A stretch of DNA of 57,226 nucleotides from Candidatus Woesearchaeota archaeon (lineage in GTDB: Archaea; Nanobdellota; Nanobdellia; Woesearchaeales; GW2011-AR9). Positions within the stretch are counted from its first letter, which is position 1, and the number at the start of each line of letters is the position of its first letter. The notes below the pieces were generated by a model. That model saw only the letters and a list, made by a program, of their open reading frames with translations. It was not told the DNA's origin and did not search any database. The position numbers and the translations under genes are program-made. The stretch covers positions 1 through 57,226 of the forward strand of contig JACOZP010000009.1 of the NCBI GenBank assembly GCA_016181265.1, given 5' to 3'. Positions 5,926 through 29,521 of this stretch are shown here, piece by piece.

Positions 5926-5966
5926 TCATAAACTTAATAAGAGGAACGCTATAACCTGTGTTACCC

Positions 5967-9835: not shown

Positions 9836-9841
9836 GAATGC

Positions 9842-10783
9842 TTAAATAATCTTTAGTGGGTCAGATAGTTTAGCACGATCTTCTTTACGGATAACTTTCC
9901 GCAGTTGAAGGTCACCAACACCAATGGCGTTGAACCTGCTTGCGTACATTATCTCGATGATTAAACGAGGCTTTTTGCGTGATCGTGAACCGTAGTGAAA
10001 ACATCTCGAGGCATTTATCATCAATGTTGATCCCGCTTTTCCCGTAAAGGGGATGGTCTCTTTAGGAGAGATATATTGATACATCTTCTCATCTGGAACG
10101 CGACCATCATAGTAGTTCATTTTCCGGGCAATCTCCGTTGATTTGTCTGCAGGGATAAGAGTAAACGGTCCAGCATCGTGATCAACATCGTGGACAGCAA
10201 TAAAAAATTGGAACCGGTTATGATCCCTTTTATCAAAATGAAATTTTTGTGAGTCTATGGTTTTATCATTAACATCAGTGTGCATTAAGAAGATGTTTCC
10301 TAATAAAGGCATTTCGCCAAGATAGTTAGCAACCATGCTGACAATATCTGGTCTGGTGGCAAATTCAATGAGCGGTTTTATCTCTTGAAAATCACAATAT
10401 CTTTTTTTCTCTCCATGTTTACCAATCAGAAATACTTTTGATTTGAAGTCTTGACTCTTCTGGTAATATGCTTCTACGTCATCTTTTCGCTGCTCAAATA
10501 CTTTTTGACAATGTGCGACGATGTCGCTAATGCCGGGGATATCTTCTGGTTGAAGAAAGAGGAACTGGCTCGTTTCTGGTAAGGAGAGGCGTGGGGGGTA
10601 CTGGCGCACGAGATCTTTTATTTTCCGTTTTCTGGTAATATATGCATACGGATGGGCAGTGATTTTTGCTCTTTTTATTATTTTCCAGCGATATTTAGCG
10701 GAAAAGCCCATCTTATTGAGAATGAAATTAAAGATCCGATCACTTCCTATTTTTCTTAGCCGAGCGATACTGTATTTATTCAT
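9842..10783 (-). CDS. 2-oxoglutarate/Fe(II) dioxygenase (phytanoyl-CoA dioxygenase-like)
   Basis: SQKFHFD (HxD), GPFTLIP, G.AG, FHYGSR...R motifs. Confidence 0.7.
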   Translation of the reverse strand: MNKYSIARLRKIGSDRIFNFILNKMGFSAKYRWKIIKRAKITAHPYAYITRKRKIKDLVRQYPPRLSLPETSQFLFLQPEDIPGISDIVAHCQKVFEQRKDDVEAYYQKSQDFKSKVFLIGKHGEKKRYCDFQEIKPLIEFATRPDIVSMVANYLGEMPLLGNIFLMHTDVNDKTIDSQKFHFDKRDHNRFQFFIAVHDVDHDAGPFTLIPADKSTEIARKMNYYDGRVPDEKMYQYISPKETIPFTGKAGSTLMINASRCFHYGSRSRKKPRLIIEIMYASRFNAIGVGDLQLRKVIRKEDRAKLSDPLKII

Positions 10784-10876
10784 GATCTATTTGCGAGAGA
10801 TATATTTTATTTATAATGCTTTCGGAAATTGGCTTCGGAATCCGAAATATTTAAAAAAAGACTGGTTTTCGCCTAA

Positions 10877-11680
10877 ATGATGACTTTTCACTCACTAAAA
10901 GATAAGAAGAAAGTGATCCGCCGAAGATCGTTCAAAGAAACCATCAAGCTAGCTGTTGTCAGAACTAGCAAACAGTTCTTAATGATTGATCTTGTGCGAT
11001 ATTGTATTGCCTTACTAAGATTTATCTACTTTACGAAGATTAGAAAGCGATTTCGCGTGTATAAAGGAGATAGAGAAAAAATTAGTGATAATACGATCTT
11101 TCATAATTTCCCCCGCTTTAAGAGTCTTGCTGTGATTAGATCAAACCTTCTCATTCGTCCACTTTCGATCATTGATCCCATTTATTCTCGATTAGAACAG
11201 ACAAGCGTTCTTTCGATTGGCCCAAAAGCGGAGGGAGAGCTCTTTAATCTGGTTGGCTATGGCTTCTCTCCCTCTAAAATAAGGGGTGTTGATCTCGTGT
11301 CTTACTCTCCTTGGATAGATGTGGGAGATATGCATCATCTCCCGTATCGTAATAACTCTTTTGATGTTGTAATGAGTGGCTGGGTTATTGAGGGATATAG
11401 TCGCGATCCGAAACAAGCAGCTGCCGAGATGCTTCGTGTCGTAAGAGATGGAGGTATTATCGCTGTTGGTATTGGCTGGTCTCCGGATTCATTTCGCCAA
11501 AAGTTAAAACAAACACGTGGCTACAATTTCGAGCGACGCTTAACTAGTGTGCAAGATATCCTTAATCTATATGGTAATTCAGTTGGTTCTATCTACTTTT
11601 CTCAAGACCTGCGTGAAGAGGCGAAAACAAGGGCATTCGGTCAAGATATTATGGTCATTTTTTCTGTTAAGAAGAATTGA
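10877..11680 (+). CDS. Class I SAM-dependent methyltransferase
   Basis: VLSIGPK, GVDL, GDMHHLPY..NSFDVV, EMLRVVRDGG. Confidence 0.8.
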   Translation: MMTFHSLKDKKKVIRRRSFKETIKLAVVRTSKQFLMIDLVRYCIALLRFIYFTKIRKRFRVYKGDREKISDNTIFHNFPRFKSLAVIRSNLLIRPLSIIDPIYSRLEQTSVLSIGPKAEGELFNLVGYGFSPSKIRGVDLVSYSPWIDVGDMHHLPYRNNSFDVVMSGWVIEGYSRDPKQAAAEMLRVVRDGGIIAVGIGWSPDSFRQKLKQTRGYNFERRLTSVQDILNLYGNSVGSIYFSQDLREEAKTRAFGQDIMVIFSVKKN

Positions 11681-11726
11681 TCTTCGTTTAATAATACTTA
11701 TAAAGAATTCTCTCTAATATCCCTGG

Positions 11727-12272
11727 ATGGGTTTGTATTTCTCTAAAGGGAAGAATGTCGTTCTACGACCACTGCTTTCTCGGGATATAACAGAAGATTA
11801 TATCTCCTGGTTTAATGATCCAGAAGTAAATATGTACTCCCGTAGGAGACTCTTTCCAACAAATGAATGGCAGGCGAAAGATTATCTTTTGCAAGGACAA
11901 GCAGATGGAGCAATCTTAGCAATTTGCAATAATGAGGGAAAACATGTTGGAAATATCAAGTTTGGACCGATTAATTGGGTTCATCGCTCTACGGAAATAA
12001 TGATTATAATTGGTGATAAGAAAGAATGGGGAAAGGGTTATGCACGGGAAGCGATGTACCTGATCGCGAAACACTTATTTAACGTCTTAGGACTGCATCG
12101 GATTGAGGCAGGAACAGTTAATCCAGCTTTTCTTACTGCTGTAGAAAAAATTGGCTGGAAACGAGAGGGCACTTTTCGCGAGGCTTACTTCTTAAATGGT
12201 AAATTCAAAGATATTGTAAAAGTTTCGTTATTACATCATGAGTTTATTGAGAGAGCTGAATTTGAACCATGA
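11727..12272 (+). CDS. GNAT N-acetyltransferase (RimJ/RimL, PseH-like)
   Basis: LRPL, WFNDPEV, IGDKKEWGKGYA, GWKREGTFRE. Confidence 0.85.
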   Translation: MGLYFSKGKNVVLRPLLSRDITEDYISWFNDPEVNMYSRRRLFPTNEWQAKDYLLQGQADGAILAICNNEGKHVGNIKFGPINWVHRSTEIMIIIGDKKEWGKGYAREAMYLIAKHLFNVLGLHRIEAGTVNPAFLTAVEKIGWKREGTFREAYFLNGKFKDIVKVSLLHHEFIERAEFEP

Positions 12273-13348
12273 CACTGAATGTTGGGATTATTGGTTGTGG
12301 AAATATTGCATCGTTGTATAGTAATGATTTCTCTCGCTGGCCAGTCACACATTTAGCGGCTTATACCGATCACCCTATGACAAAAGTAGTTGCTGTTTGT
12401 GATACCGATCCCTCGCGAGCACGTTCCTGCGCGGAGAGGTGGGATATTCCAAAATGGTACGCGAGCTATGTTGAGATGCTGCAACAGGAGAAGTGTGATA
12501 TCATTAGCATTTGTACCTCTTATGAAAGCCACGCGGAGATTATTAGAGAGATTGCTCGGTATCGTGTCCGTGCGATTCTTTGTGAAAAGCCGTTTACTCA
12601 TAATCTTGATGATGCTCGGGAAGTAACAGATTTGTGCAAGAAGAAGGGGATTTCTCTCGCCGTCAATTTTCAGAGAAGACATGACCGGTTGCATGAGTAT
12701 GTCAAAGAGAATCTTTCTTCTCTAGTTGGCGATGTTAAAAAAGTTACTTTCCTTTATTCTGGTGGAATTATTAATAATGGGAGTCATGCTTTTGACCTTC
12801 TTCGCTTCTATTTTGGAGAGATCTCATCTTTATCTTCCATTGTTGAAGATGGCACATCTGACGGTTCCTTTGCTATGGATCCTAATTTGACTGTCCATCT
12901 TCGGTTTACATCCGGCCTTTCGGTAGTACTGACTTCTTGTACAATCCCAAATCATTCTACTTTTGAAATGTCGATACTTGGTACGAAAGCAAGATTAGAT
13001 CTTCTGAACAAACCTTTCTTTGGTTATGATTATCGTTATTTTCCCTACGTTTCTTCTGAAACGCTTCCTTCTGTTACTTGTTCTTCGAGCGTTTTGAAAC
13101 ACACTCTCCCTAATGATTTCTCTCGTGATTTGCTTGTTAGGGCTATTGATAATCTAATTCAGAGTATAGAAAATAACGACCCTCATTTTGAACTTGTCTC
13201 TTCCGCTGAAAATGGTATTTCTGCATTAGAGTTAGTTTCAGCGGCGATCTTTTCAGCAAGAACACACCAAGAGATTACATTCCCTTTCACGCAGTCTCTG
13301 ACTTTACCACGATTACAAGGGGTGTTCACAACATGGAAGAGAAATTAG
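12269..13348 (+). CDS. Gfo/Idh/MocA-family oxidoreductase
   Basis: GIIGCGNI, CEKP, VNFQRR, NNGSHAFD. Confidence 0.9.
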   Translation: MTLNVGIIGCGNIASLYSNDFSRWPVTHLAAYTDHPMTKVVAVCDTDPSRARSCAERWDIPKWYASYVEMLQQEKCDIISICTSYESHAEIIREIARYRVRAILCEKPFTHNLDDAREVTDLCKKKGISLAVNFQRRHDRLHEYVKENLSSLVGDVKKVTFLYSGGIINNGSHAFDLLRFYFGEISSLSSIVEDGTSDGSFAMDPNLTVHLRFTSGLSVVLTSCTIPNHSTFEMSILGTKARLDLLNKPFFGYDYRYFPYVSSETLPSVTCSSSVLKHTLPNDFSRDLLVRAIDNLIQSIENNDPHFELVSSAENGISALELVSAAIFSARTHQEITFPFTQSLTLPRLQGVFTTWKRN

Positions 13349-14622
13349 CGCTGTTTGGAGGAGAGCCAACGTTTACGGGGGCTTTGCCGATAACAAATAC
13401 TATTGGTGTTGAGGAAAAGGAGGCAGTTAATAGGGTTATGGATCGCGGTATCCTTTCTAGCTTTGTGGGGAGATGGGATGATCGTTTTTATGGAGGGCCA
13501 GAGGTACGACGGTTTGAAAGTATATTTGCTCAAAAATTCAAAGTTAACAATGCGGTCTCGTTTAACTCAGCGACGACTGCTCTACAGGCAGCAATCGCTG
13601 CCGCCGGTATTGGGCCAGGAGATGAAGTAATTACCAGCCCTTATACTATGTCGGCAACAGCTTCGTGTATTCTTGCTAATCATGCTATACCTATTTTCGC
13701 AGATATCGATGAACATACTTTTTGTCTTGATCCGGTTGATGTTAGGAAAAAGATTACTCCTCGGACGAAAGCGATTCTATCAGTAAATATCTTTGGTCAT
13801 GTTCCTGACTATGATCAACTCTTAGCGATTGCTCGTGAGCATGGGTTGTTGTTGATTGAGGATTGCGCGCAATCGCCTGCTGCTTTTTATAAAGGAAGAT
13901 ATGCTGGAACAATCGGTGATATGGGAGTTTTTAGTTTTAACTTCCATAAGACGATGCATTGTGGTGAGGGGGGTGTTTTAGTAACTCAGGATGAACGTTT
14001 AGCTTTCCGCGCCCAGCTTGTGAGAAATCACGGTGAAGTGGTCTTGGATGAAGTTCCAGTGAGTGATTCTCGGAAACAAGAAATAGTTCTTGGTAGTAAT
14101 TATCGGTTAAGTGAGTTGCATGCTGCTATTGCGACCGAGCAGCTTCAAAAACTCGATTTTTTGACTAAAGCGCGTGTAGCTCTCGCGGATTACCTTACGC
14201 TAAAGCTTAAAGGAATTCCAGGTCTAGAATCCGTCTTTGTCAGATCTGGCTGTACTCATGTTTACTACATTTATCCACTGAAGTACGATGAGAATTATTG
14301 GGGTTTCCCTCGATCTAAATTCGCGCAAGCATTGAAAGCGGAAGGCGCGCCGATTGCAGAAGGGTATGTTAAGCCGTTATACTTAATCCCCCTTTATCAG
14401 CGCAGGAAAATGTATCCCAGAACTGCTTTTCCTTTTGTCTCTCTAGATTCTTCTGATGATCCCCATTATCAGAAGGGCAGCTGCCCTGTTGCTGAACGGA
14501 TGTATGAAAAGGAGTTACTCACTACAAATATCTGTCGATATCCACTGACGAGAGATGAAATAGATCGATTTATTTCTGCAATCCAAAAGATTGATCGCCA
14601 TAAAAGAGAATTACGGAGTTAG
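13333..14622 (+). CDS. DegT/DnrJ/EryC1/StrS PLP-dependent sugar aminotransferase
   Basis: NSATTAL, GPGDEVI, IEDCAQS, FSFNFHKTMHCGEGG. Confidence 0.93.
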   Translation: MEEKLALFGGEPTFTGALPITNTIGVEEKEAVNRVMDRGILSSFVGRWDDRFYGGPEVRRFESIFAQKFKVNNAVSFNSATTALQAAIAAAGIGPGDEVITSPYTMSATASCILANHAIPIFADIDEHTFCLDPVDVRKKITPRTKAILSVNIFGHVPDYDQLLAIAREHGLLLIEDCAQSPAAFYKGRYAGTIGDMGVFSFNFHKTMHCGEGGVLVTQDERLAFRAQLVRNHGEVVLDEVPVSDSRKQEIVLGSNYRLSELHAAIATEQLQKLDFLTKARVALADYLTLKLKGIPGLESVFVRSGCTHVYYIYPLKYDENYWGFPRSKFAQALKAEGAPIAEGYVKPLYLIPLYQRRKMYPRTAFPFVSLDSSDDPHYQKGSCPVAERMYEKELLTTNICRYPLTRDEIDRFISAIQKIDRHKRELRS

Positions 14623-14628
14623 GTCTAC

Positions 14629-15639
14629 ATGGTTAAGACGATCTTTTTTTTTAGCCAAGACCCTGGCAGTGCTAATGCCCTTTTTCCGGTGATAAAGAAG
14701 ATACAAGAAAGAAAATGGCTTTTTAATGTATTCGTTTTCGCCACAAGACAAAGCAAAGAAATTTTTCGAGGCGAAGGAATTGATTTCACTGATCTTGATG
14801 TTCATCATTTCTCTCCGGAGAATTTCCCTTCCCCTGCGTTGATTATAGTTGGAGCGAGCGCGGGGTTATGTCCCGAAAAGTCAGCGATCCTTTTCGGGAA
14901 AGAAAGAGGTATTCCTACGCTTTCTATACTTGATTTTTGGAGCAATTACTCCTCTAGATATAGTGAGAAAGAAAATGATTTTGCGTATCTTCCTGATTTC
15001 GTCTTGGTGATGGATCAAAATGCTAGGGACCAAATGATTGAGTTAGGATTTTCTCAGAAAAAAGTTATCGTGACAGGTAATCCTTTTTTTGATACTTTCA
15101 AGCTTGCTTCTGTTCAAAACGATACGCGAGACATCCTTTATGTTTCTCAGCCAGAAGTGAAAGAAGGAAAGTACTCTCCGAACTATACTCTTCTTAAAGA
15201 TATTTTGGACGTCAAAAAAGAATTGAACATTCCCTCTTCTTTGATCATACGTCCTCATCCGAAAGAGGATTGTAATGCATACAATGAGTATTGCACCAGC
15301 GATATCGTTGTCGATTGTACTTCTTCCATTCGCTCCTTGTTACAGAAATCATCAATAGTTATTGGAAGACATTCCATGGTCCTCTTCGAAGCTGTTTTTT
15401 CGGGGAAATTGGTTCTGAGCTATCAACCAGAAAATGAATCTGTTGATCGTTTAATTACCAATATGATGGGCCTCTCTTATTGTGCGAGATCGAAAGAAGA
15501 GTTAATAGTTCTCTTTAAGAAAGCAACAAGTGGTGAATTAAAAAAGAAGGAGATTGGTATAGTTCCTTATCTTAATGATGGGAAATGTACCGAACGGGTT
15601 GTTGCAGAGATCGAAAAAATGTTGGTTTTATTTACATAA
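14629..15639 (+). CDS. GT-B fold protein (possible nonulosonate transferase)
   Basis: DPGSAN, DFWSNY, VTGNPFFD, RPHPKE, SMVLFEA. Confidence 0.6.
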   Translation: MVKTIFFFSQDPGSANALFPVIKKIQERKWLFNVFVFATRQSKEIFRGEGIDFTDLDVHHFSPENFPSPALIIVGASAGLCPEKSAILFGKERGIPTLSILDFWSNYSSRYSEKENDFAYLPDFVLVMDQNARDQMIELGFSQKKVIVTGNPFFDTFKLASVQNDTRDILYVSQPEVKEGKYSPNYTLLKDILDVKKELNIPSSLIIRPHPKEDCNAYNEYCTSDIVVDCTSSIRSLLQKSSIVIGRHSMVLFEAVFSGKLVLSYQPENESVDRLITNMMGLSYCARSKEELIVLFKKATSGELKKKEIGIVPYLNDGKCTERVVAEIEKMLVLFT

Positions 15640-17164: not shown

Positions 17165-17214
17165 TAGCTATCTTTTACATAAACTATTTATAAGGCTTGT
17201 TAAAGAGGAGTCTC

Positions 17215-18735
17215 ATGGCTACGATTATCCTTGGTTTGGATGGAATGAGTTTAGAGCTCCTTGAATTATGCCAGAAGGATATGCCTAATCTCCATGGACT
17301 CCTTTCGAAGAGTGCTTATACTAGTGCCAAGAGTGTATTTCCCATTCTGTCTGGCCCGGCGTGGACGAGTATCCTCACTGGCCAGGGTGTTGGGAAGCAT
17401 GGCTTTCTTAATTCTTTTTATTATGATGATAAGATGCAGGTTAGGATTACCCAACCGGAAGATGTATCAGAAGAGCATTTGTACGAAACTCTTTCCCGAT
17501 TTGGGAAGAGAGTATTTGTGATGGATGTTCCTTTCTCTACTTCTCGTAAGATTAAAGGAGATTTCCTTGATTCTTATTTTTCTACAAAGGAAAAACGTGA
17601 TCAGATTGTGCCTGCCGATTTAGTTACACGATTTCCTAGCATCAGGAATTATCTTAACTACAAGCCGAAGATCAAAAATATGAATAAAAATATTCGAAGT
17701 TTTATTGAGATCATCAATAACAATGGGGAGATCATTAAAGATATCATCAATTCTAAGAGCTATGATCTCATGTTTTTTCAGCTTAGTATTGTTGATTGGA
17801 TCCAGCATAAAGCGTTGATTGAGATAAAGCACCGACCACGAAGTAGGAAAGCGAGAGTTTCTGTTTTGGTGCTTAGAGAGTTGGATCATTTAATTGGATG
17901 GATAATTTCTCACCTTTGTCCCGAGGATCATTTCTTTGTGATTAGCGATCATGGTGGGACAGAATTGGAGGGTACATTCTTCATCAATAGCTGGCTGCGC
18001 AAGGAAGGTTTCTTGAGATTAATGGAACCGGTGAAAAGGAAGAACAATCTAGATGGCAGTAGCAGCTCCCGTCTCTCAAATTTTCTGGGAGAGACTATTG
18101 GCTTTCTCGCTAAGACTGCTAAGAGTAATAGGCTTCTCTTGAACATGGCAAAACCAATTCATCGAAAAATGAGATCCTATTTTGGAAAAGATTTCAGCAG
18201 TGAAGAAAAGATTAATTACCAAGAAAGCAAAGCGGTATGTCTAATTAAGAATATTCCTATCATCAAGATTCTGGAAAAGGATTTCGTTAAGAGGGAGCAG
18301 TTAAAGAGGGATATAATGGCCCGGCTTCGTGATGATTTAGCTTTTACCTCGTGGGATATTCTTGATTATTATCATTGTTGTGATGCGTCTTCAGAGATTA
18401 AGGGGAGGTTACGCCATTTTGGAGATATTGTTGTTGATTTAGAGAAACAGGAATTAGATGTATTTTTAGGTAATCGGATTTTCCTGAAAGGTAAAACAAT
18501 GTTCCATGATGAGAATTCCATCTTTATTGGCTATGGTCCAGAGATTAAAGTTGGCAAAATCAAGCAAGAAATCTCTATTATGGATATTTGTCCAACAGTC
18601 CTTTACTTTTTCGGTATTCCTATCCCAAACAGTAAAGACGGAAAAGTAATGGATATTTTTAGGAAAGAATTTATCCCTCCCTCTCTGGAGTCACCAAAGC
18701 CCGATGATGAAAACATCGAGATGATAGATTGGTGA
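17215..18735 (+). CDS. Alkaline phosphatase superfamily phosphodiesterase/phosphotransferase (COG3379-like)
   Basis: ILGLDG, P..SGPAWTSILTG, DWIQH, VISDHG, FH...IFIGYG, MDICPT; GAGGAG upstream of ATG 17215. Confidence 0.8.
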   Translation: MATIILGLDGMSLELLELCQKDMPNLHGLLSKSAYTSAKSVFPILSGPAWTSILTGQGVGKHGFLNSFYYDDKMQVRITQPEDVSEEHLYETLSRFGKRVFVMDVPFSTSRKIKGDFLDSYFSTKEKRDQIVPADLVTRFPSIRNYLNYKPKIKNMNKNIRSFIEIINNNGEIIKDIINSKSYDLMFFQLSIVDWIQHKALIEIKHRPRSRKARVSVLVLRELDHLIGWIISHLCPEDHFFVISDHGGTELEGTFFINSWLRKEGFLRLMEPVKRKNNLDGSSSSRLSNFLGETIGFLAKTAKSNRLLLNMAKPIHRKMRSYFGKDFSSEEKINYQESKAVCLIKNIPIIKILEKDFVKREQLKRDIMARLRDDLAFTSWDILDYYHCCDASSEIKGRLRHFGDIVVDLEKQELDVFLGNRIFLKGKTMFHDENSIFIGYGPEIKVGKIKQEISIMDICPTVLYFFGIPIPNSKDGKVMDIFRKEFIPPSLESPKPDDENIEMIDW

Positions 18736-18738
18736 TCA

Positions 18739-19374
18739 CTAGTGCAAAATCTCGTGCAGTCTCTCAGCGAGCTGGCATAATCTTCTTTCAGTAATCTTAG
18801 TTTTTCGAATTGGCTTCATCTTAACGAATTCTTCCTTTGTAAGAGGATCATAATGAATCTGCTTCTTGCCGAAAGTGCTATCAACGATAGAAGGTTGTCC
18901 CAGATCGCCGCGGAAAGGAAATAGTTTGAGATGGAGATGCTCTTTTTTCTCTTTCCACGTCGTAGTCTTACCGTACACTGCGACAGCGACACCTTCTTCT
19001 CGAGTAGATGAGATCGCTTTAAAGTTCGGCTGCTCCTCTGCCATGATTCTCGTCATTGCCGCATTCAGTTTGCTAAAAGCAAGACCATAATTCTTTGCAA
19101 GTTCAGGATTCCCTGCCAGCTGAGCAAAATGAGAAAAATGCCCTAAAGTCATCAGTTGTATTGTAAAATCTCGCTGATGATCCCCTCCTGTCTGGGGAGA
19201 TAATGTCGCAAACCAGCCGTTGACAATGGAATCGCCGATGCGAAAGATGACGATCGCATTATATTTTGTCCGCGTCCCGACGGGCAATATTGCTTCTTGG
19301 CACCAGACACAATCATCTTTGAGAGAAATGTCTTCTGCTAAGAGAATTTTTAATTGCTGTACAGTATTATGCAT
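18739..19374 (-). CDS. HIT-like protein with CxxC and HxHxK motif, paralog A
   Basis: DDCVWC, GHFSHFAQL, NYGLA, YGK, EHLHLKL; clearly similar to 19436-20050. Start at ATG 19374, as the longer ORF overlaps the divergent gene. Confidence 0.6.
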   Translation of the reverse strand: MHNTVQQLKILLAEDISLKDDCVWCQEAILPVGTRTKYNAIVIFRIGDSIVNGWFATLSPQTGGDHQRDFTIQLMTLGHFSHFAQLAGNPELAKNYGLAFSKLNAAMTRIMAEEQPNFKAISSTREEGVAVAVYGKTTTWKEKKEHLHLKLFPFRGDLGQPSIVDSTFGKKQIHYDPLTKEEFVKMKPIRKTKITERRLCQLAERLHEILH

Positions 19375-19435: not shown

Positions 19436-20050
19436 ATGACGCTTAGCGACTTGTTAGAACAAGCAACTACAACCAGTAGCGACTGTGTCTTTTGTGATTT
19501 TTCCACAGCCGATGTCGGAGACAAAGATAGCCGCGGTGCAGTAAAAGTATTCCAAACAGGTTCTAGTTTCGGGCAGGATTGGTATGGTATCCTCCAAACC
19601 GGTGTGATGTCTGATCCAATGAGTGGTTTTCGACTGTTACTTGTTCCTTTAGGTCATATTCAATCTTTTGCTGAAATCGCTAAAGATAGACGACTAGCAG
19701 AAAATTATGGAATTGCAACTGCACAGCTAAGCTTAGCGATGCAAAGAATCAGAGAAGAAGAATATGCTGGTACAGATACATTTACACCGGGTCAAATCGT
19801 CTATGGAAAATGTCATACTCCCGTAAATTCACAATCTCATCTTCATTTAAAACTGGATGAATTTAGCGGGGGGTTAGCACAAGCATTTCCTCCTGACGCG
19901 GGATGGATAAAAAAGCAGACCGGGCAGAGTGAAGGATCCATGGGAGAATTATATGTCAGAGCACGACCAGTCACAACAGTAGAATTAGAGTTGGAACGTA
20001 TCACCTCACTAGCCGATAGGTTGATTGACTACGCTAAGAGATCAATTTAA
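19436..20050 (+). CDS. HIT-like protein with CxxC and HxHxK motif, paralog B
   Basis: SDCVFC, LLVPLGHIQSFAEI, NYGIA, YGK, QSHLHLKL. Confidence 0.65.
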   Translation: MTLSDLLEQATTTSSDCVFCDFSTADVGDKDSRGAVKVFQTGSSFGQDWYGILQTGVMSDPMSGFRLLLVPLGHIQSFAEIAKDRRLAENYGIATAQLSLAMQRIREEEYAGTDTFTPGQIVYGKCHTPVNSQSHLHLKLDEFSGGLAQAFPPDAGWIKKQTGQSEGSMGELYVRARPVTTVELELERITSLADRLIDYAKRSI

Positions 20051-21119
20051 TATACTCTTTCTCTCTTCTCTCATCAAGATAAGCATCAAAGTAACCGACG
20101 ACCAAACGATAATACGCCTCCCCGGATTTCATCTGAACATGCTCCACTATCCCCGAAGCCCTTATCCTCTCGCCGGGGTATGCTAACATGCAATAATCAC
20201 GAGAATAAAACACTATTTTGGAGATCGGAATGAGAGCTACCTGAGGATCGTTCTCGATTATCGTTGAATTCTTGATATTATAACAACCCGGCCTTACCAC
20301 CGAGCTAAAGTTATCAACTACTTCTCCTTCAATCACTGCCTGGCCCACAGAGGTGTATTTCTCCTCTCCCCATTTGAACCAAACTTCTTCTTCTTTTTCC
20401 GCTGCGAAGATGACAAAAAGGCTACCATCAAAGTAACCTTCTGTTTTCCGGCGTTTCATCGAATGAAGGAATTCTTTTTCTTGGGAGATTGAGAAGCGAT
20501 TGCGCTTCTTATGAAACGCAAGCCACTCTTCATCCGTCTTCCAATGTAAGAACGGATGGGTTGCACTTTCGAGATAAGACATCAATTTCCAGAAATTCTC
20601 TTTGCCATACACGACAATATTAATATCTGAGATTGCAGGATTATAATGGCCCATCAAAGTAGAATATGTTATCCCGAAATCTTTGATCCTCAGGCCGCTT
20701 TGGAGGAGAAATTGAGAGAAAGAAAATACCCTGAAGAGATATTGATCCAAAGATGCGGGTGGCATGGACATCAGTTCTTTAAAGCCCCTTCGAGGGAAAT
20801 AGATTCGTTCAATCTTGTCGATCGGGATCGAAAAGAAAAGATGGTTCTTATCATGAAAAGGACTGGTATACACATACGAGGAATACGCTTCACGGAAACG
20901 AGCGATATAAGACTTCAGCTCTTCCTTCTCTGCCCACATATTCAGTCGATTCATCTTTCGTCCCATAATGAAACGATACGCAAGAGCACTGCTCTCGACA
21001 GTGGAGGTAGGAATATATTTTGGTTTAACTAAAATAGAAGAAGAAGGATGTTCATTACCATAGACTTGGCATTGCAGACCATCTTTAGTGGTGATAATTG
21101 ATGACTCATAAAAATGCAT
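20034..21119 (-). CDS. Archaeal Pol-beta-type nucleotidyltransferase-like protein (COG1665-like) with degenerate DxN motif
   Basis: GITYSTLMG...SDINIVVYG; C-terminal OB-like region (A.PGERIRASG.VE); paralog of the C-terminal third of 21145-24408; GGAGG upstream of ATG 21119. Confidence 0.7.
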   Translation of the reverse strand: MHFYESSIITTKDGLQCQVYGNEHPSSSILVKPKYIPTSTVESSALAYRFIMGRKMNRLNMWAEKEELKSYIARFREAYSSYVYTSPFHDKNHLFFSIPIDKIERIYFPRRGFKELMSMPPASLDQYLFRVFSFSQFLLQSGLRIKDFGITYSTLMGHYNPAISDINIVVYGKENFWKLMSYLESATHPFLHWKTDEEWLAFHKKRNRFSISQEKEFLHSMKRRKTEGYFDGSLFVIFAAEKEEEVWFKWGEEKYTSVGQAVIEGEVVDNFSSVVRPGCYNIKNSTIIENDPQVALIPISKIVFYSRDYCMLAYPGERIRASGIVEHVQMKSGEAYYRLVVGYFDAYLDERREKEYIKLIS

Positions 21120-21144: not shown

Positions 21145-24100
21145 TCAATCGAGTAATGCTTTAAGGTATTCTTTCTCACCTTGTTCATTGGTATACGTAT
21201 TCATGTAACCGATAACTAATTGATAGAACTCACGCCCTTTCGGCGTCGTCACCTTTTCCAGCAAACCGCAGGCTTCTACTCTTTCCCTTTCTTTTGCCTG
21301 CAAAGCAAAAGGCCGCGACCAAAATACAATGCGTTCTATAGGAACTTCCTGATAACCTTCCAGAATTCTGGATTGGATAATTTCATAATAGCCCGGCCTG
21401 ACGTGAGAATAACGACAATCCTTCACGACACCCTGCATAACGACTGTAGCCAAAGGCTCATGCTTATCTTCCCAATCATACCACTCGGAAGTTCCCATCT
21501 CAACAACAAAGATTGAAAAGACATTTCCATCAAAAAGACCGTCATCACGTTTTCGCACCATGTTATGGACATATTCTCCTTCCGTAAACACTTTTGACAC
21601 GACTCGGTCCTTATAATAGCGAGCCCAATCCTCTCTCGACTTCCATTTTAAGAGTGGGTGCTGTACCGTCTCCATGTGTTTCAAGACCCGCCAGCCATTT
21701 TCAATACCAAAGATCAAAATATCAATGTCTGACTTTCCTGGAGTATAATTTCCCAACAACGTAGAATGGCTTATTCCCAGATCACTGACAGAAACTCCAC
21801 TCTGTAAGATAAGATTAATGATCCCTCGTGTCGCTTTTAGGTAAGGATCTAAATCTGCATCCGGAACTTTCAGGAATTGGCATAACCCTGCTCGAGGATC
21901 GTGAACTGTCAACACGTCTGTCTCCGGCACGGCAAAGAACCACTGTTGATGATTTTTATCAGAGAGAAGCAAGTGAGGGAGATTTCGTTTCAGAACAGCA
22001 AGATTCTCTCTCCCACTCTCTTTATCATTAAAGAGATTAAAGCGAAAAACACTTTTCTGAAAGAGAAACCTCTTCTTCAGTTTCCGAAACGAGTCTCCGT
22101 CTTGTAGCAGATCTTCAGGGATGTATTTTGGCTTGACAATCACCCGTCCAGAGGGATGATGAGTAGCGTAGACTTTACATTGGATGCCCTCTTTAGTAGT
22201 AATTAATGATGATTCCGGGTAGCGAGGATAATCAGCATCAGGAGATCTTCTAGGATGAACAACTTCCATCTGTGCAGAAAGATTATAGTTACTTTCCAAT
22301 TCCTTCACTCTCTCATTAAAAACTGCAAGGCACAATTGGTTGTAATCTGTTCTACCAGTAGTAAGATTATCAACAAAACTGCGGACTTTCAGTAACTTTC
22401 CTTGAAGACGGATTTTTCTCTCTTGCTCAGGAAGTTCTAGCACATATTCCAGATCCATCAGATCAGAAAGCCGATCGATGATCTCCGTGTTCACCACTTC
22501 ACGAGGTGCGCCGATTAACCGCGAGATATGCTCGCGATAACGCGGTGGAAGACTAGAGGGGTGAGGATCACGTGAAAGAGACTTGTTTTCTGTCAGAAGA
22601 GAAAGATGCTGGATAACCTGAGGGTACTGTCGCAAAAAAGGTTGTTGAGATAGAGTTCTGACCGTGACCGGAGTATCTTCGAGAACATCATGCAATGCAG
22701 TAGTAAGTATAGAAGAAACGTCTCTCTCACCGCATGCGTAAAGCAACCTGACAAGATAGATTGAGTGAAAAACTAGAGGAGTGATACCATCATTCCTTTT
22801 CTGATCACCAAATGCCGTTACGAGAAAATGAAAGACCTCTTTAAAGAGATCTTGCTTTTCGCCAAAAGAATGTGCAACTTCATCCGCAGCCCGACTAACA
22901 TCTTCCTGGAACTGCTCTTTAACCCGAACATAATCCGGACGTACTTCTTTTAAGAGAGGATCTGACCCGAAAGCAATACGTGATTTTTCATCTAAGACAA
23001 ATTGAGAGATACTCGAATTCTTCTCTTCTCTAAAGCAATTGATCGGCCCAACAACAATATCTTTAGGAACGGCAACATTCAAAGCAGTTAATATTGTTGG
23101 TGCGACCTGACGAATATCCACATCATTCATCAGTCCTCGTCTCTTAACTTCTGGTCCGCTAATGATAAAGAGCCCTTGTCGTGAATGCCCAGCACTATCT
23201 GCGCCAATCGCCGTGTGCCAAGAATAGAGATCCTCCGGTACAAGATCAGGGTTAGAGGCCCAACGTAAATCGTCAAAATAGATCGTTAAATCAGGACACT
23301 CAGGATGAGATACATTTTGGTATATTTCTTCCGCAGTGTAAACTTTCGTTTGGAGTTGATTCCCCTTATCATCAGGAATCTTTGTAATCTTCTCTGCAAT
23401 TTCATCGCGAACATCTCTCCATTTGCTGCCTAACTTCTCTTTATTGATACTGATTCTACCGTTGTATGCTCCTCCACCCCAAGCCAAGCTTCGGTCCATA
23501 TCTACAAGTTCCATCTTAAAACGCGTGCTCTTGCTAAGATCAACACCCTCTTTCAAGACGAGGTAGCCCTCTTTAATGAGCCAGTTGTTAATGTTGATCT
23601 TGCCCTCCTGTTTGATCATCCCATGATCAGATGCAACGATAACAGTAGTATCGTGTGGTAGAAGTTGTAGTACTTCTCCCAGTTTCTGATCGATATAAAC
23701 GTAAAAATCTCTAATTGCATTCGCATGGGGGGAATCCACGATGAAGCGACGATGCCCCTCATCAAAATGACGCCAAAGCATATGTTGAAGTCGATCAGTT
23801 CCTAGCATGACTGCCATGCAGAAATCCCATTCTTCATTGACGATGAGATCTTTCAAGAGAGAAACCTGCATATTAGTCATCTCTTTTGCCCGGCTGACCA
23901 GCTCACCAGGATCAAGGCTTTTATGGCTGCCCAACCCCACCGCAACATCGAAGAAACCTTCTGGATTACCTAATGCTTTAATTTTATCTTTGAGGCTTTC
24001 TGGGTAAGCGCAGTTACTTTCAACTCCCGGTGTCATGAAATCGGTAACGATACACCCTGGAAACATCGTGACTGGATAGGAAAGAGGGACATAAAGAGCA

Positions 24101-24408
24101 ATGCTCTTTCGTTTCTCATCGCCGATAATATCCCAAACCAATCTCGCTTTATTGTTCTTAGAACTGACAAGACGATATTCTCCCTGCTCATCCTTATAGG
24201 TGTAGTTAAAGACACCGATCTCACTTGGATCTTTTCCAGAGATCATGGCATTCCACGCCACAATCGTAGAGGGAGGAATAGTGCTATTCATCCGAGCGTA
24301 CGTGCCATGTTCCATTAGTTTCTGGATATTAGGCAAAAGATTGTTCCAACGCTCAAAAACAAGATCTGGAACGCCGCCATCAATACCAAATAAGAAGACT
24401 TTTCCCAT
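21145..24408 (-). CDS. Three-domain fusion: AlkP-superfamily phosphodiesterase + RelA/SpoT(Mesh1)-type HD domain + COG1665-like nucleotidyltransferase
   Basis: aa 1-460: GIDG, PPSTIVAW, DRLQH, ASDHG, GHS..G, VAPTIL. aa ~520-660: QKRNDG.TP..FH, LHDVLED, DRLSD. aa ~730-1087: GISHSTLLG..KSDIDILIFG. Confidence 0.75.
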   Translation of the reverse strand: MGKVFLFGIDGGVPDLVFERWNNLLPNIQKLMEHGTYARMNSTIPPSTIVAWNAMISGKDPSEIGVFNYTYKDEQGEYRLVSSKNNKARLVWDIIGDEKRKSIALYVPLSYPVTMFPGCIVTDFMTPGVESNCAYPESLKDKIKALGNPEGFFDVAVGLGSHKSLDPGELVSRAKEMTNMQVSLLKDLIVNEEWDFCMAVMLGTDRLQHMLWRHFDEGHRRFIVDSPHANAIRDFYVYIDQKLGEVLQLLPHDTTVIVASDHGMIKQEGKININNWLIKEGYLVLKEGVDLSKSTRFKMELVDMDRSLAWGGGAYNGRISINKEKLGSKWRDVRDEIAEKITKIPDDKGNQLQTKVYTAEEIYQNVSHPECPDLTIYFDDLRWASNPDLVPEDLYSWHTAIGADSAGHSRQGLFIISGPEVKRRGLMNDVDIRQVAPTILTALNVAVPKDIVVGPINCFREEKNSSISQFVLDEKSRIAFGSDPLLKEVRPDYVRVKEQFQEDVSRAADEVAHSFGEKQDLFKEVFHFLVTAFGDQKRNDGITPLVFHSIYLVRLLYACGERDVSSILTTALHDVLEDTPVTVRTLSQQPFLRQYPQVIQHLSLLTENKSLSRDPHPSSLPPRYREHISRLIGAPREVVNTEIIDRLSDLMDLEYVLELPEQERKIRLQGKLLKVRSFVDNLTTGRTDYNQLCLAVFNERVKELESNYNLSAQMEVVHPRRSPDADYPRYPESSLITTKEGIQCKVYATHHPSGRVIVKPKYIPEDLLQDGDSFRKLKKRFLFQKSVFRFNLFNDKESGRENLAVLKRNLPHLLLSDKNHQQWFFAVPETDVLTVHDPRAGLCQFLKVPDADLDPYLKATRGIINLILQSGVSVSDLGISHSTLLGNYTPGKSDIDILIFGIENGWRVLKHMETVQHPLLKWKSREDWARYYKDRVVSKVFTEGEYVHNMVRKRDDGLFDGNVFSIFVVEMGTSEWYDWEDKHEPLATVVMQGVVKDCRYSHVRPGYYEIIQSRILEGYQEVPIERIVFWSRPFALQAKERERVEACGLLEKVTTPKGREFYQLVIGYMNTYTNEQGEKEYLKALLD

Positions 24409-24459: not shown

Positions 24460-24684
24460 CTAATCTAGATATCCTAACTCTGCCAACCTTTTCTTTACTT
24501 TTTCTTCGTTTTCTAGAGAGTTTTCTTTTGCTCTTTTTTCTTCTTCTCTGATTTTTCCCGCTATCTGACAGAGAACATCTTCTATGTATGCTGAAAGAGA
24601 TGGTATTCCTTTCTCCTGACTCCTCTTCAGAAGAAGTGCTATTATTTCTGAGGAAAGATCAATCCGTAAGGTCTCTTTTTCCAT
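24460..24684 (-). CDS. Small CopG/RHH-like protein with C-terminal EEKVKKRLAELGYL motif
   Basis: Beta-alpha-alpha pattern (LRIDLS..I...L...G..SLSAYIEDVL) plus the LGYL tail seen in small archaeal proteins encoded beside AlkP genes. Confidence 0.7.
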   Translation of the reverse strand: MEKETLRIDLSSEIIALLLKRSQEKGIPSLSAYIEDVLCQIAGKIREEEKRAKENSLENEEKVKKRLAELGYLD

Positions 24685-27459: not shown

Positions 27460-27867
27460 ATGGTAACATTTCAGTTTGTCCCCTATCAAGATATTGAGGC
27501 TTTGACTTCTGCTAAGCGCATTAACAAGCTCTTAAATATTGTCAAAGGTGATCGTATTGTCATTATGGAAGGTCGTCTCCGCAAAGAAGAAGAAGCGGAT
27601 TTGATCGAAATTACCATGGAAGAGATCGGTTCTAAATTTCGTGGAATAGAGTTAAGCGTCATTTATCCTGATAAGACAAAATTAGATGCGATGCAAAAAT
27701 TACGCAGCATGTTCACCAATATGATTCTCGGAGACCGTCAAGGGTTGACGATCATCGGTCCGGCTTCGATTGTCAAGCGCATTGAGAAAGACCCCGATAA
27801 AATTGAACTGTTTACCAAAGATAACGTGAATTCACCCCGCTACCGCGGTAAGCGAAAAAATAAATAG
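27460..27867 (+). CDS. oapB: DUF2073 family protein (OapB)
   Basis: EEEADLIEITMEEI..F.GIE, GLTIIGPA. Confidence 0.85.
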   Translation: MVTFQFVPYQDIEALTSAKRINKLLNIVKGDRIVIMEGRLRKEEEADLIEITMEEIGSKFRGIELSVIYPDKTKLDAMQKLRSMFTNMILGDRQGLTIIGPASIVKRIEKDPDKIELFTKDNVNSPRYRGKRKNK

Positions 27868-27888
27868 GGGTAGCACTTCTGGAAGCGT

Positions 27889-28290
27889 ATGCCACACCAA
27901 TGTGTTCGTTGCAGTACGCTCTATCCTGATGGAGCACAAGAGATTCTGAAAGGCTGCCAGTGCGGCGCACGCCTCTTTTTCTACATCAAGAAAAAACATA
28001 TCGAAGAAGGTAAAGAACTGATTAATAATCTTTCTGTTGAAGACAAAAAACAGATCGAAACAGATATTGCTGAGATCATGACCATCAAAGAGGAAGATCT
28101 TGATAAGCCCGTTATCCTTGACATTGAGGCCATTCGTGTTCTCCAACCGGGGAAATATGAACTAGATCTAGTTCATCTATTCAAAAAAGACCCATTGATT
28201 ATCAAATTGGAAGAAGGGAAATATATGATTGATCTAGGGCAGTTGTTTGCCAAAGGCAAAGAAGGGATGGATAACGAAGAAGAGGATTAA
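27889..28290 (+). CDS. oapC: Zn-ribbon DUF2072 family protein (OapC)
   Basis: MPHQCVRC..ILKGCQCG, IRV..PGKYELDL, EEGKY.IDL. Confidence 0.88.
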   Translation: MPHQCVRCSTLYPDGAQEILKGCQCGARLFFYIKKKHIEEGKELINNLSVEDKKQIETDIAEIMTIKEEDLDKPVILDIEAIRVLQPGKYELDLVHLFKKDPLIIKLEEGKYMIDLGQLFAKGKEGMDNEEED

Positions 28291-29352: not shown

Positions 29353-29448
29353 GCACCGGTGGTATAATGGCTAGTATCTCAGCCTTCCATTTTCGGATGA
29401 AGGTTTAGAAGAGAGCTGATGATCCGGGTTCGAATCCCGGCCGGTGCA
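29353..29448 (+). tRNA. tRNA-Gly(TCC) with 24-nt intron at 37/38 (29390-29413)
   Basis: Acceptor GCACCGG/CCGGTGC, anticodon stem TCAGC/GCTGA, loop CT-TCC-A, T-loop TTCGAAT; CTTC/GAAG helix between 3-nt bulges. Confidence 0.93.
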
Positions 29449-29521
29449 CTCATTCTTTAACTAGGTCAAAAATATTTTCAACAGCGTTAAATTTATAAAT
29501 AACAAATTTATACTCCCCAAT

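Follow-up and report, generated by a model that had tools for sequence, protein, structure and literature searches.

What is the role of a single archaeal protein that unites an alkaline-phosphatase-superfamily domain (AlkP1), an HD domain and a Pol-beta-type nucleotidyltransferase domain (NTa)? The window, the complete 57,226-nt stretch of a Candidatus Woesearchaeota contig analysed here, encodes such a protein (P0001) on the minus strand at 21145..24408. The preliminary description reported a single 1087-aa reading frame, which is borne out by translation: it has an ATG start and no internal stop. That description read the protein as an enzyme that makes and breaks an unusual (pyro)phosphorylated nucleotide, or that removes a 3'-phosphate by-product such as PAP. 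The three domains, the RSH/Mesh1-type HD, the intact D-x-D of the nucleotidyltransferase and the PAP-removal option are supported, while the make/break pair is not. With middling confidence, we propose that the protein belongs to a module for the self-contained making and recycling of a PAPS-type sulfate donor for surface-glycan sulfation, the functions being read from gene context.

The three-domain reading frame is a genuine fusion

HMM searches delimit the domains of P0001 at residues 1-459, 491-722 and 732-1086. The junctions were previously placed near positions 23030 and 22230, that is, residues ~459 and ~726, in agreement with these limits. The motifs quoted before are also where they were said to be: QKRNDG at 536-541, H548, LHDVLEDT at 572-579, DRLSD at 645-649 and SDIDI at 893-897.

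Most relatives encode the three parts as individual neighbouring genes, arranged in the identical order, so an apparent fusion could result from loss of a stop codon or from chimeric joining. We regard an assembly or gene-calling artefact that merged adjacent genes as next to impossible. The preliminary description proposed looking for the same architecture in other genomes, where it is found, uninterrupted, in at least five further sequences (P0002, P0004, P0005, L001 and L003); identity to P0001 is 87% for P0002, 57% for P0005 and 56% for P0004. L001 is an independent assembly, collinear with the window through both domain junctions, and a single blastn HSP of 5639 nt at 84% identity covers the full gene together with the genes downstream. 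The three domains differ little in GC content (0.436, 0.433 and 0.427), and the 57-kb window contains no N. On the NTa tree, the fused proteins form a single clade (support 0.965). The 1087-aa reading frame is a genuine fusion of three module proteins, not a chimera.

The fused domains are parts of a conserved module

We compared 72 loci, comprising 71 related, mostly DPANN-archaeal loci and the window. The loci were retrieved with patterns derived from the nucleotidyltransferase (NT) family, so NT is present in 72/72 by design; the sample is also unevenly spread over the phylogeny. The module consists of a ribbon-helix-helix-like gene, AlkP1, NTa, its paralogue NTb, a HIT-like protein and a phosphatase, with APS kinase (CysC), pyruvate kinase (PK), sulfotransferase and sulfatase-fold genes as frequent extras. 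The HIT-like gene is present in 49 loci, AlkP1 in 37, CysC in 24, sulfatase-fold genes in 20 and PK in six. Sulfotransferases of PAPS-type families (PF00685, PF13469 and PF03567) occur in eight.

The 74-aa protein upstream of the fusion (24460..24684, minus strand) resembles a ribbon-helix-helix protein by eye and has no match in Pfam. Its gene lies directly upstream of AlkP1 in 25/72 loci, and it is likely to be the regulator of the operon. The window also carries glycan genes: nonulosonic-acid genes, an aminotransferase, a flippase and glycosyltransferase-like genes. Against a role in sulfation, no APS kinase, sulfotransferase or sulfurylase was found in the 57-kb window.

The central HD domain is of the RSH/Mesh1 type

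The central domain (residues 491-725; 22234..22938, minus strand) had been assigned to the RSH/Mesh1 type from its motifs, and profile searches agree. A profile of 16 sequences matches Mesh1 (3nqw, E 1.8e-11; 3nr1, 2.4e-10) and the Rel hydrolase domains (7oiw, E 8.5e-11; 1vj7, 5.6e-9) in the PDB. Residues R538, H548, H573-D574, E577-D578 and D645 align to Rel/Mesh1 active-site positions, and H573, D574, E577 and D578 are invariant in 16/16 sequences. TIGR00691 matches P0001 at residues 532-615 only, within the HD part (22 bits against a cut-off of 499), and PRK11092 gives a weaker match, at residues 521-599, likewise confined to the HD part. Pfam HD_4 does not match P0001; the homologue P0016 reaches 19.7 bits, below the cut-off of 27.2.

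RSH synthetases also have the nucleotidyltransferase fold. A true RSH/Mesh1-family HD with intact catalytic residues, placed N-terminal of a Pol-beta-fold transferase in the order of long RSH proteins, might point to a RelA/SpoT-like enzyme, in which NTa makes and HD breaks an unusual (pyro)phosphorylated signalling nucleotide. We consider this very unlikely. The NCBIfam RSH matches are confined to the HD part, and the NT region matches PF01909 as well as Polbeta and MTPAP-like models (PF18765, PF22600) but no RSH synthetase; the preliminary description had likewise placed the partner in a different NTase family. HD is missing from 62/72 loci, swapped for PHP or CysQ-like phosphatases, and the HD-NTa fusion arose once, within one small clade of the NTa tree. 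The conserved neighbours of the module belong to sulfate activation and glycan synthesis: APS kinase, pAp-type phosphatases, sulfotransferases and an ATP-sulfurylase-linked AlkP.

PHP, HD and IMPase genes share one phosphatase slot

The phosphatase slot of the module is held by a PHP gene in 43 loci, by the RSH/Mesh1-type HD in ten and by a CysQ-like IMPase fused to APS kinase in two (L012 and L030; PF00459 and PF01583). No two of these types occur together in any of the 72 loci, and exactly one is present in 50 of the 53 loci with at least 3 kb of sequence downstream of the last NT gene. HD loci appear at no fewer than five separate places on the NTa tree. A single tight NTa clade mixes all three types, with IMPase in L012, HD in L009 and PHP in L006 and L010. 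PHP-CysC fusions are found in L031 and L038.

The module PHP matches 2yb1 at E 8.9e-21. This entry is CV1693, solved with AMP and Pi according to PMC9410882 and listed as a pAp hydrolase in PMC8268124. The option of PAP-like 3'-phosphate removal, raised in the preliminary description, gains from these findings, as the place of HD is taken in relatives by Cv1693-type PHP or CysQ-like IMPase-APS kinase genes; the types are mutually exclusive and have been swapped in several distinct parts of the NTa tree. A PF03567-type sulfotransferase adjoins the HD gene in 3/10 HD loci. Two observations count against a link to sulfation. The module PHP scores highest in the PDB against a 5'-3' exoribonuclease, RNase AM (7ug9, E 2.8e-28), and could thus be a nanoRNase; APS kinase is found within 8 kb in 0/10 HD loci.

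A probable active/inactive nucleotidyltransferase pair is accompanied by HIT-like proteins

The NTa domain (residues 732-1087; 21148..22215, minus strand) retains the catalytic motif of Pol-beta-type nucleotidyltransferases, with G878...S882 and S893-D894-I895-D896. The SDID noted before is indeed intact, and SD.D is present in 62/62 members of the NTa clade. PF01909 is matched by 57/64 NT family members at E<=1 (best 9.1e-10) and PF18765 by 25; the window copy of NTa scores 15.9 bits on PF01909 against a cut-off of 21. Sequence comparison with solved structures found no relative of NTa. Source annotations of the family read only 'predicted nucleotidyltransferase' or 'hypothetical'. Its members carry additional regions of ~140 residues at the N-terminus (KPKYIP motif) and ~130 at the C-terminus (RPGYYE motif).

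The paralogue NTb (20034..21119, minus strand; start at M24, behind GGAGG) is 38% identical to NTa (E 2e-93) and adjoins it in nearly all loci. It has S-D-I-N in place of S-D-I-D, and SD.N is found in 57/57 members of the NTb clade. NTb, which always accompanies NTa, lacks the second catalytic Asp and is probably a non-catalytic partner subunit. The downstream partners, this D-to-N paralogue and the HIT-like proteins, had been overlooked in the preliminary description.

HIT-like copy A (18739..19374, minus strand, about 211 aa) is 50-60% identical to a ~209-aa gene located 3' of NTb in 49/72 loci. Copy B (19436..20050, plus strand, 204 aa) is 32% identical to copy A and convergent with the operon, an arrangement repeated in L001. 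NTb-HIT fusions occur in seven loci. A CxxC motif and H145-L-H147-x-K149 are invariant in 19/19 HIT-like proteins. We take these proteins to be HIT-like from the H-phi-H-phi-H/Q-type motif of the HIT superfamily and from one homologue with the UniRef name 'HIT domain-co...'; a Pfam search gave no HIT match for any of the 19 members, and a profile search of the PDB gave no match. In nine loci, a ProRS-like gene replaces the HIT-like gene at its usual place, and neither NT nor the HIT-like protein has a match among characterised sulfate-activating enzymes; both findings count against sulfation.

AlkP1 forms a clade with domains fused to ATP sulfurylase

The AlkP1 domain (residues 1-465; 23014..24408, minus strand) has an alkaline-phosphatase-superfamily core with a Ser/Thr nucleophile and matches PF01663 (Phosphodiest) at residues 4-384 with 124.3 bits, against a cut-off of 23. 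In 16/16 aligned relatives, D10, D205, H209, D261, H262 and H408 do not vary, and position 48 is occupied by T or S. By analogy to the NPP layout, we take these residues to be the bimetal ligands (Asp; Asp-His; Asp-His; His) and the nucleophile. No signal peptide, TM segment or hydrophobic stretch was found in AlkP1. A phmmer search of the PDB gave no match, and with the AlkP1 profile choline sulfatase, PafA, PhnA and NPPs were matched only marginally (E 0.0036-0.1). These PDB sequence and profile searches found no characterised member close enough to fix the substrate. The window encodes a second, distant AlkP-superfamily protein, AlkP2 (17197..18735, plus strand, 512 aa; PF01663, E 1.9e-24), which is 19% identical to AlkP1, shares its PPxS/TxxAW motif and is present in 19/72 loci.

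AlkP1 is fused or adjacent to an NT gene in 31 of the 37 loci that contain it; it is missing from the other 35/72 and is therefore accessory. AlkP1 and the AlkP domains fused to ATP sulfurylase form one clade (support 0.999). Its fused sisters include ATP-sulfurylase-AlkP proteins (P0020-23) and P0019, an AlkP-PK-PUA_2/ATP-sulfurylase-APS_kinase-PHP megafusion, and their sulfurylase domains match PF01747 (E 1e-76 to 1e-96). In P0019, ATP sulfurylase is linked to four parts orthologous to those of the module (AlkP1, PK, APS kinase and PHP), and the PHP of this protein is ~50% identical to module PHPs. A blastp search with Sat domains from P0019 and P0020 against every ORF in the 71 loci and in the window gave no match within ~8 kb of the module. 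Pfam likewise detects no ATP sulfurylase (PF01747, PF14306) on P0001. Woesearchaeota genomes carry sat, as described in PMC7844129, a point against the sulfation reading.

A possible route of sulfate activation and recycling

In the PAPS-type sulfate-donor module that we propose, the NTa/NTb heterodimer and the HIT-like protein would perform the missing step, ATP + sulfate -> APS + PPi. Two nucleotidyl-transfer sites would be available, either of which may attack sulfate. From the gene displacement, we infer that this ATP sulfurylase role would be a functional replacement and not a matter of homology. The HD domain would act on pAp or a similar 3'-phospho-adenine nucleotide, hydrolysing its 3'-phosphate to yield AMP. 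AlkP1 would act as a coupling enzyme fused to the PPi-releasing enzyme, where it most likely destroys PPi and so pulls the unfavourable reaction; PPi as the molecule removed is a guess. The AlkP1-HD-NTa fusion may keep product removal beside the activating site. If this is true, sulfate is activated and recycled partly by enzyme types not known for that job.

AlkP1 might instead be a sulfotransferase, whose Ser/Thr takes sulfate from APS or PAPS produced by the adjoining enzymes and hands it to a lipid- or nucleotide-linked sugar, by analogy to the phospho-alcohol transferases of the AlkP superfamily that act on phosphodiesters. We consider this doubtful, yet worth weighing. Canonical sulfotransferases are found in only 8/72 loci. 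APS kinase is rarer in loci with AlkP1 (6/37) than in those without (18/35), which would fit direct use of APS, and the two-domain ATP-sulfurylase-AlkP would form a complete sulfation enzyme. On the other hand, we know of no precedent for a sulfo-Ser/Thr intermediate. Regular fusion to the activating enzyme would also be unexpected of an acceptor-specific transferase while the AlkP2 and sulfatase-fold paralogues vary, and 35/72 loci manage without AlkP1. In favour of a sulfotransferase, the Haloferax volcanii protein Agl7 (HVO_2046) is annotated as N-acetylgalactosamine-4-sulfatase (Table S1 of PMC3892788) and is reported to be required to sulfate dolichol-phosphate-bound hexose, which genetically connects a sulfatase-annotated member of the AlkP superfamily with the sulfation of archaeal glycans.

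The module could also make another PAPS-like donor for glycan decoration, 3'-phospho-NDP-X, with X a phosphoramidate, phosphonate or similar group. NTa would then be an NTP:X-phosphate nucleotidyltransferase and the 'APS kinase' a 3'-kinase, and the 3',5'-bisphosphate by-product would be left for HD or PHP to remove. Cj1415 of Campylobacter jejuni is an APS-kinase homologue. Together, Cj1415-Cj1418 make CDP-phosphoramidate 3'-phosphate in the O-methyl-phosphoramidate pathway, as reported in PMC11800397, and provide a precedent. The location of the module in glycan clusters agrees with such a donor, as do the membrane protein with a CDP-alcohol-transferase-like motif after CysC or PHP in 22 loci and the lack of the C/SxPxR motif in 15/17 sulfatase-fold neighbours. 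We nevertheless find this reading improbable. The sisters of AlkP1 are fused to bona fide ATP sulfurylase, P0019 unites the four module-part orthologues with it, and eight loci contain PAPS-type sulfotransferase families. In addition, no glutamine-kinase-like or amidohydrolase gene is recurrent in the top 40 neighbour clusters.

Comparison with known systems

The proposed sulfate-donor module resembles several systems in part. Among glycan-modifying pathways, Agl7, from an N-glycan cluster of an archaeon, is likewise an AlkP-superfamily protein by its sulfatase annotation and is required for the sulfation of a lipid-linked sugar. The Cj1415-1418 product is a glycan-decorating donor built like PAPS, 3'-phospho-NDP-X. 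To our knowledge, the whole Campylobacter pathway works without AlkP, HIT-like or Pol-beta NTase parts.

With minimal Pol-beta nucleotidyltransferases (PF01909, PF18765), the NT family shares the core with G-S ... S-D-I-D; it differs in its N- and C-terminal additions and in the predicted pairing of an active with an inactive paralogue. AlkP1, PK, APS kinase and PHP are common to the module and the ATP sulfurylase megafusion P0019. Unlike Sat, the predicted replacement is a Pol-beta NTase heterodimer (D-x-D and D-x-N subunits) with a HIT-like protein. The principle of coupling sulfate activation to PPi removal by fusion has a parallel in the ATP sulfurylase-inorganic pyrophosphatase fusions of stramenopiles and haptophytes, described as shifting an unfavourable equilibrium (PMC2275785).

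As in long RSH proteins and Mesh1 (HDDC3), the central domain is an HD of that family, and its position before an NTase-fold domain is that seen in long RSH. In contrast to long RSH, the partner is a PF01909-type NTase with GS...D-x-D and not an RSH synthetase. The Asn of the D-R-L-H-N motif is Asp in the HD of P0001, and loci of the module can lack the domain or carry a pAp-type phosphatase in its stead. Human MESH1 is reported to strip the ribose phosphomonoester off NADPH (10.1101/325266), an activity closer than ppGpp hydrolysis to the predicted HD substrate, the 3'-phosphomonoester pAp. Three known families of pAp phosphatases are listed in PMC8268124: CysQ (FIG/IMPase), NrnA (DHH) and Cv1693 (PHP). 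In sequence, the HD domain is unrelated to all of them, and it shares its gene position and predicted role with the Cv1693-like PHP and CysQ-like genes. If the prediction is correct, the RSH-type HD would represent a fourth, undescribed family of pAp phosphatases.

A three-domain fusion protein present in several genomes

The region 21145..24408 on the minus strand is one ORF without interruption, encoding a protein of 1087 aa (P0001). It consists of an AlkP-superfamily domain (AlkP1, residues ~1–465), a central HD domain (491–725) and a nucleotidyltransferase domain (NTa, 732–1087). The motifs quoted in the preliminary description are present: QKRNDG..TP..FH at 536–548, LHDVLEDT at 572–579, DRLSD at 645–649 and SDIDI at 893–897. 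The three-domain architecture it described also occurs elsewhere. The homologues P0002 (87% identity), P0004 (56%) and P0005 (57%) span all 1087 residues, and proteins of the related loci L001 (1087 aa) and L003 (1105 aa) carry the same three HMM domains. A single 5639-nt HSP between the window and L001 (84% identity) crosses both domain junctions and the downstream genes. The three domains of P0001 hardly differ in GC content, and the window contains no N. The triple fusion is almost certainly not an artefact.

Residues 4–384 match PF01663 with 124 bits against a Pfam cut-off of 23, and the AlkP core residues D10, T/S48, D205, H209, D261, H262 and H408 are kept in 16/16 relatives. Neither a signal peptide nor a hydrophobic segment was found in a sequence scan of AlkP1. 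A phmmer search of the PDB returned no match for this domain, and a close characterised relative was not found.

As a single sequence, the HD region gives weak matches (TIGR00691, E 4e-5; Rel 7oiw, E 3.7e-4). Searched against the PDB as a 16-sequence profile, it finds Mesh1 of Drosophila (E 1.8e-11) and human (2.4e-10) as well as hydrolase domains of Rel (8.5e-11, 5.6e-9). Both dyads, HD and ED, are invariant in the alignment of the 16 sequences. Motifs and profile assign the central domain to the RSH/Mesh1 HD family, yet under the curated cut-offs.

The C-terminal 356 residues belong to a separate family (NT) with a Pol-beta nucleotidyltransferase core. PF01909 is matched by 57 of 64 family members (best E 9e-10), with the window copy under the cut-off. 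Sequence and profile searches of the PDB with NT gave no match, and the source databases annotate the family merely as 'predicted nucleotidyltransferase' or 'hypothetical'. Judged by its sequence, the fusion protein is not an RSH enzyme; its transferase domain falls outside the RSH family.

Organization of the module loci

A pattern scan covering one genome per GTDB species yielded 71 related loci. Their ORFs were called and scanned with HMMs from in-house alignments; neighbouring genes were clustered, and cluster representatives were named by Pfam. Counts out of 72 comprise these loci and the window. As the loci were retrieved by NT patterns, the ubiquity of NT is built in. The closest relatives of the window are Woesearchaeota and other DPANN MAGs. 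Many loci, including L003, L007 and L010, are labelled 'uncultured Methanosarcinales archaeon' and have DPANN MAGs as closest relatives, and L056 (JAGXBC010000002.1) comes from a MAG labelled Patescibacteria, which are bacterial. These labels hint at errors of binning or labelling, or at horizontal transfer.

In most loci, the three domains are separate neighbouring genes. The usual order is a small RHH-like gene, AlkP1, NTa, its paralogue NTb, a ~209-aa protein, a phosphatase and often an APS kinase (CysC). The AlkP1-HD-NTa fusion is found in the window, L001 and L003, the HD-NTa fusion in L002 and P0016–18, and the AlkP1-NTa fusion in L008, L014, L018, L022 and the ~815-aa proteins P0006–14. 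NTb is fused to the ~209-aa HIT-like protein in 7 loci, and the phosphatase PHP to CysC in L031 and L038. The HD-NTase fusion has one origin, within the NTa tree (support 0.965). This single origin and the RSH membership result speak against the alarmone-like make/break pair that had been suggested for the two domains.

The gene immediately upstream of the fusion gene (24460–24684, minus strand) encodes 74 aa, and it is kept upstream of AlkP1 in 25/72 loci. Its product, for which Pfam has no family, resembles ribbon-helix-helix proteins and has a conserved C-terminal tail (R-L-x-x-L-G-Y-L-D). It is possibly the operon regulator.

Three phosphatase types alternate in one slot

PHP occupies the phosphatase slot in 43 of the 72 loci, the RSH-type HD in 10 (the window, L001, L002, L003, L009, L020, L025, L026, L039 and L056) and a fusion of IMPase (PF00459) with APS kinase in 2. 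Two types are never found in one locus. Where the sequence extends 3 kb or more beyond the last NT gene on its downstream side (53 loci), exactly one type is present in 50. The zero overlap of PHP and HD has a hypergeometric P of 3.7e-5, a value that ignores relatedness. The scatter of slot types over the NTa tree is, in our assessment, more telling: HD loci lie at no fewer than five separate places, and one tight clade holds L012 (IMPase), L009 (HD) and L006/L010 (PHP).

PF00459 is the CysQ family. In the PDB, the module PHP finds 7ug9 (RNase AM, E 2.8e-28) and 2yb1 (E 8.9e-21). The latter is CV1693, whose structure is described with AMP and phosphate (PMC9410882) and which is cited as a pAp hydrolase alongside CysQ and NrnA (PMC8268124). 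Three unrelated phosphatases thus share one slot, two of them from known pAp-phosphatase families, and the HD domain is therefore probably a pAp-type 3'-phosphatase. The alternation lends support to PAP removal by the HD domain, which the preliminary description had listed as an alternative. Human MESH1 is reported to take the 2'-phosphate off NADPH (10.1101/325266).

A HAD-like phosphatase domain (D-L-N-G-T, by eye) is fused behind NTb-HIT in L014 (10429–12867, C-terminal ~267 aa) and is a separate gene in L008 (12092–12913) and L017 (10917–11732). It is an extra phosphatase in loci that already have PHP.

APS kinase was found within 8 kb in 0/10 HD loci, compared with 22/43 PHP loci. A sulfotransferase adjoins the HD gene in 3 of the 10. 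HD-type modules may have their kinase elsewhere or use a different form of the donor.

NTb and the HIT-like proteins

The preliminary description covered the fusion ORF and did not include its partner genes, NTb and the HIT-like proteins, which lie downstream. NTb (20034–21119) follows directly, with the start set to M24 behind GGAGG, and shares 38% identity with the NTa domain (E 2e-93). Three clades emerge in a tree built from 127 NT segments. The SD.D motif is present in all 62 NTa members and in all 8 members of a single-copy clade, and all 57 NTb members have SD.N. Paralogy, adjacency and the D-to-N change are the grounds on which we infer an active/inactive NTa/NTb heterodimer. Pfam has no family for the window NTb, and its sole NCBIfam match, to a DNA-ligase model, is sub-threshold (E 0.024; 13.8 bits, where 337 are required).

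The window contains two adjoining paralogues of the ~209-aa module protein, at 18739–19374 (minus strand) and at 19436–20050 (plus strand, convergent with the operon). They have diverged to 32% identity. The pair is arranged alike in L001, and two copies are also present in L013, L014 and L020. The family has invariant CxxC and H-L-H-x-K motifs, which we take to be of the histidine-triad type, as in the transferase branch, and the UniRef name of one homologue begins 'HIT domain-co'. As Pfam and PDB profile searches returned no match, the HIT assignment is a lead rather than a result. For comparison, a regex scan of the loci for canonical H-x-H-x-H proteins found none.

A ProRS-like gene separates the NT gene(s) from PHP in L028, L059, L061, L063, L064, L065, L068, L069 and L070. 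Its position (e.g. L068, 9068–10441) is the HIT-like slot of 49 other loci, and the two are never found together. In 7 of these 9 loci, NT is single-copy with D-x-D intact, in a clade sister to NTb. We considered the ProRS-like neighbour as a divergent adenylate-forming paralogue and dropped this idea, as it resembles an ordinary ProRS (1h4q, E 3e-85). P0138 (505 aa), a distant relative within the NT family, has a fused HPPK of bacterial type (FolK, PF01288, E 3e-40). P0075 (2039 aa) contains nine short repeats matching residues 264–307 of the NT query.

Link to sulfate activation

Glycosyltransferases, epimerases and flippases recur in the module neighbourhoods. APS kinase (PF01583) is found in 24/72 loci, sulfatase-fold proteins in 20, PAPS-type sulfotransferase families in 8 and pyruvate kinase (PK) in 6. 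The idea that NT replaces APS kinase was dropped, since 24 loci contain both NT and CysC.

The nearest non-module relatives of AlkP1, P0020–23, are fused to a canonical ATP sulfurylase, and P0019 has the architecture AlkP-PK-PUA_2/ATP-sulfurylase-APS kinase-PHP. In the AlkP tree, the five AlkP domains of P0019–23 group with the 37 AlkP1 sequences of the module (support 0.999). AlkP2, a second, distant AlkP-superfamily protein of the loci (17197..18735, plus strand, in the window), lies outside this group. The PHP of P0019 is ~50% identical to module PHPs. A blastp search with sulfurylase domains gave zero matches among the ORFs of the 71 loci and the window. Orthologues of AlkP1, PK, CysC and PHP accompany either ATP sulfurylase or NTa/NTb with HIT-like, and for this reason we propose the latter set for sulfate adenylylation, a tentative assignment that falls somewhat short of being probable. 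As a nucleotidyl transfer releasing PPi, the reaction would fit a Pol-beta nucleotidyltransferase and a HIT-type transferase alike. The reading of the module as a whole seems to us evenly poised between right and wrong.

It is possible that the module makes a PAPS-like donor other than sulfate, for which Campylobacter is described as a precedent (PMC11800397). Woesearchaeota genomes are reported with sat (PMC7844129), and another paper reports a PAPS route in only 2/19 genomes (PMC5994134). No APS kinase, sulfotransferase or sulfurylase was found in the 57 kb of the window, and no account of such a system was found in the open-access literature.

Further genes recur in these neighbourhoods. 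A multi-span membrane protein of ~279 aa often follows PHP or APS kinase (22/72 loci, absent from the window; e.g. L016, 12274–13128, and L006, 4808–5647, minus strand). Pfam gave no match at E<0.01. Its motif resembles what we take to be the CDP-alcohol phosphatidyltransferase signature (D-G-x2-A-R...G...D...D), and it could be a membrane transferase using the activated donor. The formylglycine motif C/S-x-P-x-R is missing from the first 140 residues in 15/17 PF00884 'sulfatase' neighbours, which have no N-terminal signal peptide (e.g. L007, 5660–6985, minus strand). Their sequences suggest cytoplasmic enzymes of sulfatase fold that act as transferases or esterases, not classical sulfatases. 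In 4 loci, Radical-SAM/SPASM genes are found.

Role of AlkP1

In 31 of the 37 loci with AlkP1, it adjoins an NT gene or is fused to one; outside the module, it is fused to ATP sulfurylase. Both partners would release PPi. The equilibrium of ATP sulfurylase is strongly unfavourable, and ATP sulfurylase-pyrophosphatase fusions have been described in stramenopiles and haptophytes (PMC2275785). On these grounds, removal of PPi is the AlkP1 function we favour, held with considerable doubt. As the main alternative, AlkP1 could be a sulfotransferase in its own right. Agl7 of Haloferax, annotated as a sulfatase, is reported to be required for sulfation of a dolichol-phosphate-hexose, and fewer AlkP1 loci (6/37) than other loci (18/35) have an APS kinase.

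Other genes of the window

The window carries archaeal genes, including ZPR1, SMC and the origin-associated oapB/oapC (27460–28290). The adjoining tRNA-Lys(UUU) gene (29353–29449, plus strand) has 97 nt and thus carries an intron. A large nonulosonic-acid/surface-glycan cluster (145–15639) contains NeuB fused to a 2H-phosphoesterase domain (1758–3338), a PglD-like acetyltransferase, a CMP-sugar synthetase-like gene, a HisH/HisF-like pair, a methyltransferase, a GNAT, a GFO oxidoreductase and a DegT aminotransferase. A 216-aa ATLF metalloprotease-like ORF (53370–54020, minus strand; PF07737, E 3.8e-15), an FHA-caspase protein (44371–45483, plus strand; PF00498 and PF00656) and a protein of 600 aa whose C-terminal part weakly matches HNH (35569–37371, minus strand) have no relation to the fusion ORF.

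Discussion

Sulfate activation by a nucleotidyltransferase fold, if true, would be a textbook non-orthologous displacement by a non-homologous enzyme, and PAPS metabolism would be escaping routine annotation across many DPANN genomes. The RSH/Mesh1-type HD would then be a 3'-phosphomonoesterase beyond alarmone signalling, with a non-alarmone job in archaea, which would bear on the function of Mesh1-like proteins in organisms without (p)ppGpp. The module would point to sulfated glycans on the surface of ectosymbiotic archaea, which make host contact through it. A compact enzyme set for activation, PPi removal, pAp removal and ATP regeneration would also be of the type wanted for enzymatic PAPS regeneration.

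To our knowledge, there are two kinds of sulfate-activating enzyme, the homo-oligomeric ATP sulfurylase (Sat) and CysDN. DPANN might use a third, formed by a heterodimer of NTa and the D-to-N paralogue NTb with the HIT-like protein, driven forward by a fused AlkP-fold PPi remover and kept free of pAp by an RSH/Mesh1-type HD as a fourth pAp-phosphatase family; in this full form, the proposal is speculative and less likely than not. The PAPS-type pathway of sulfate activation and recycling is itself known; several enzymes that we propose for it are not.
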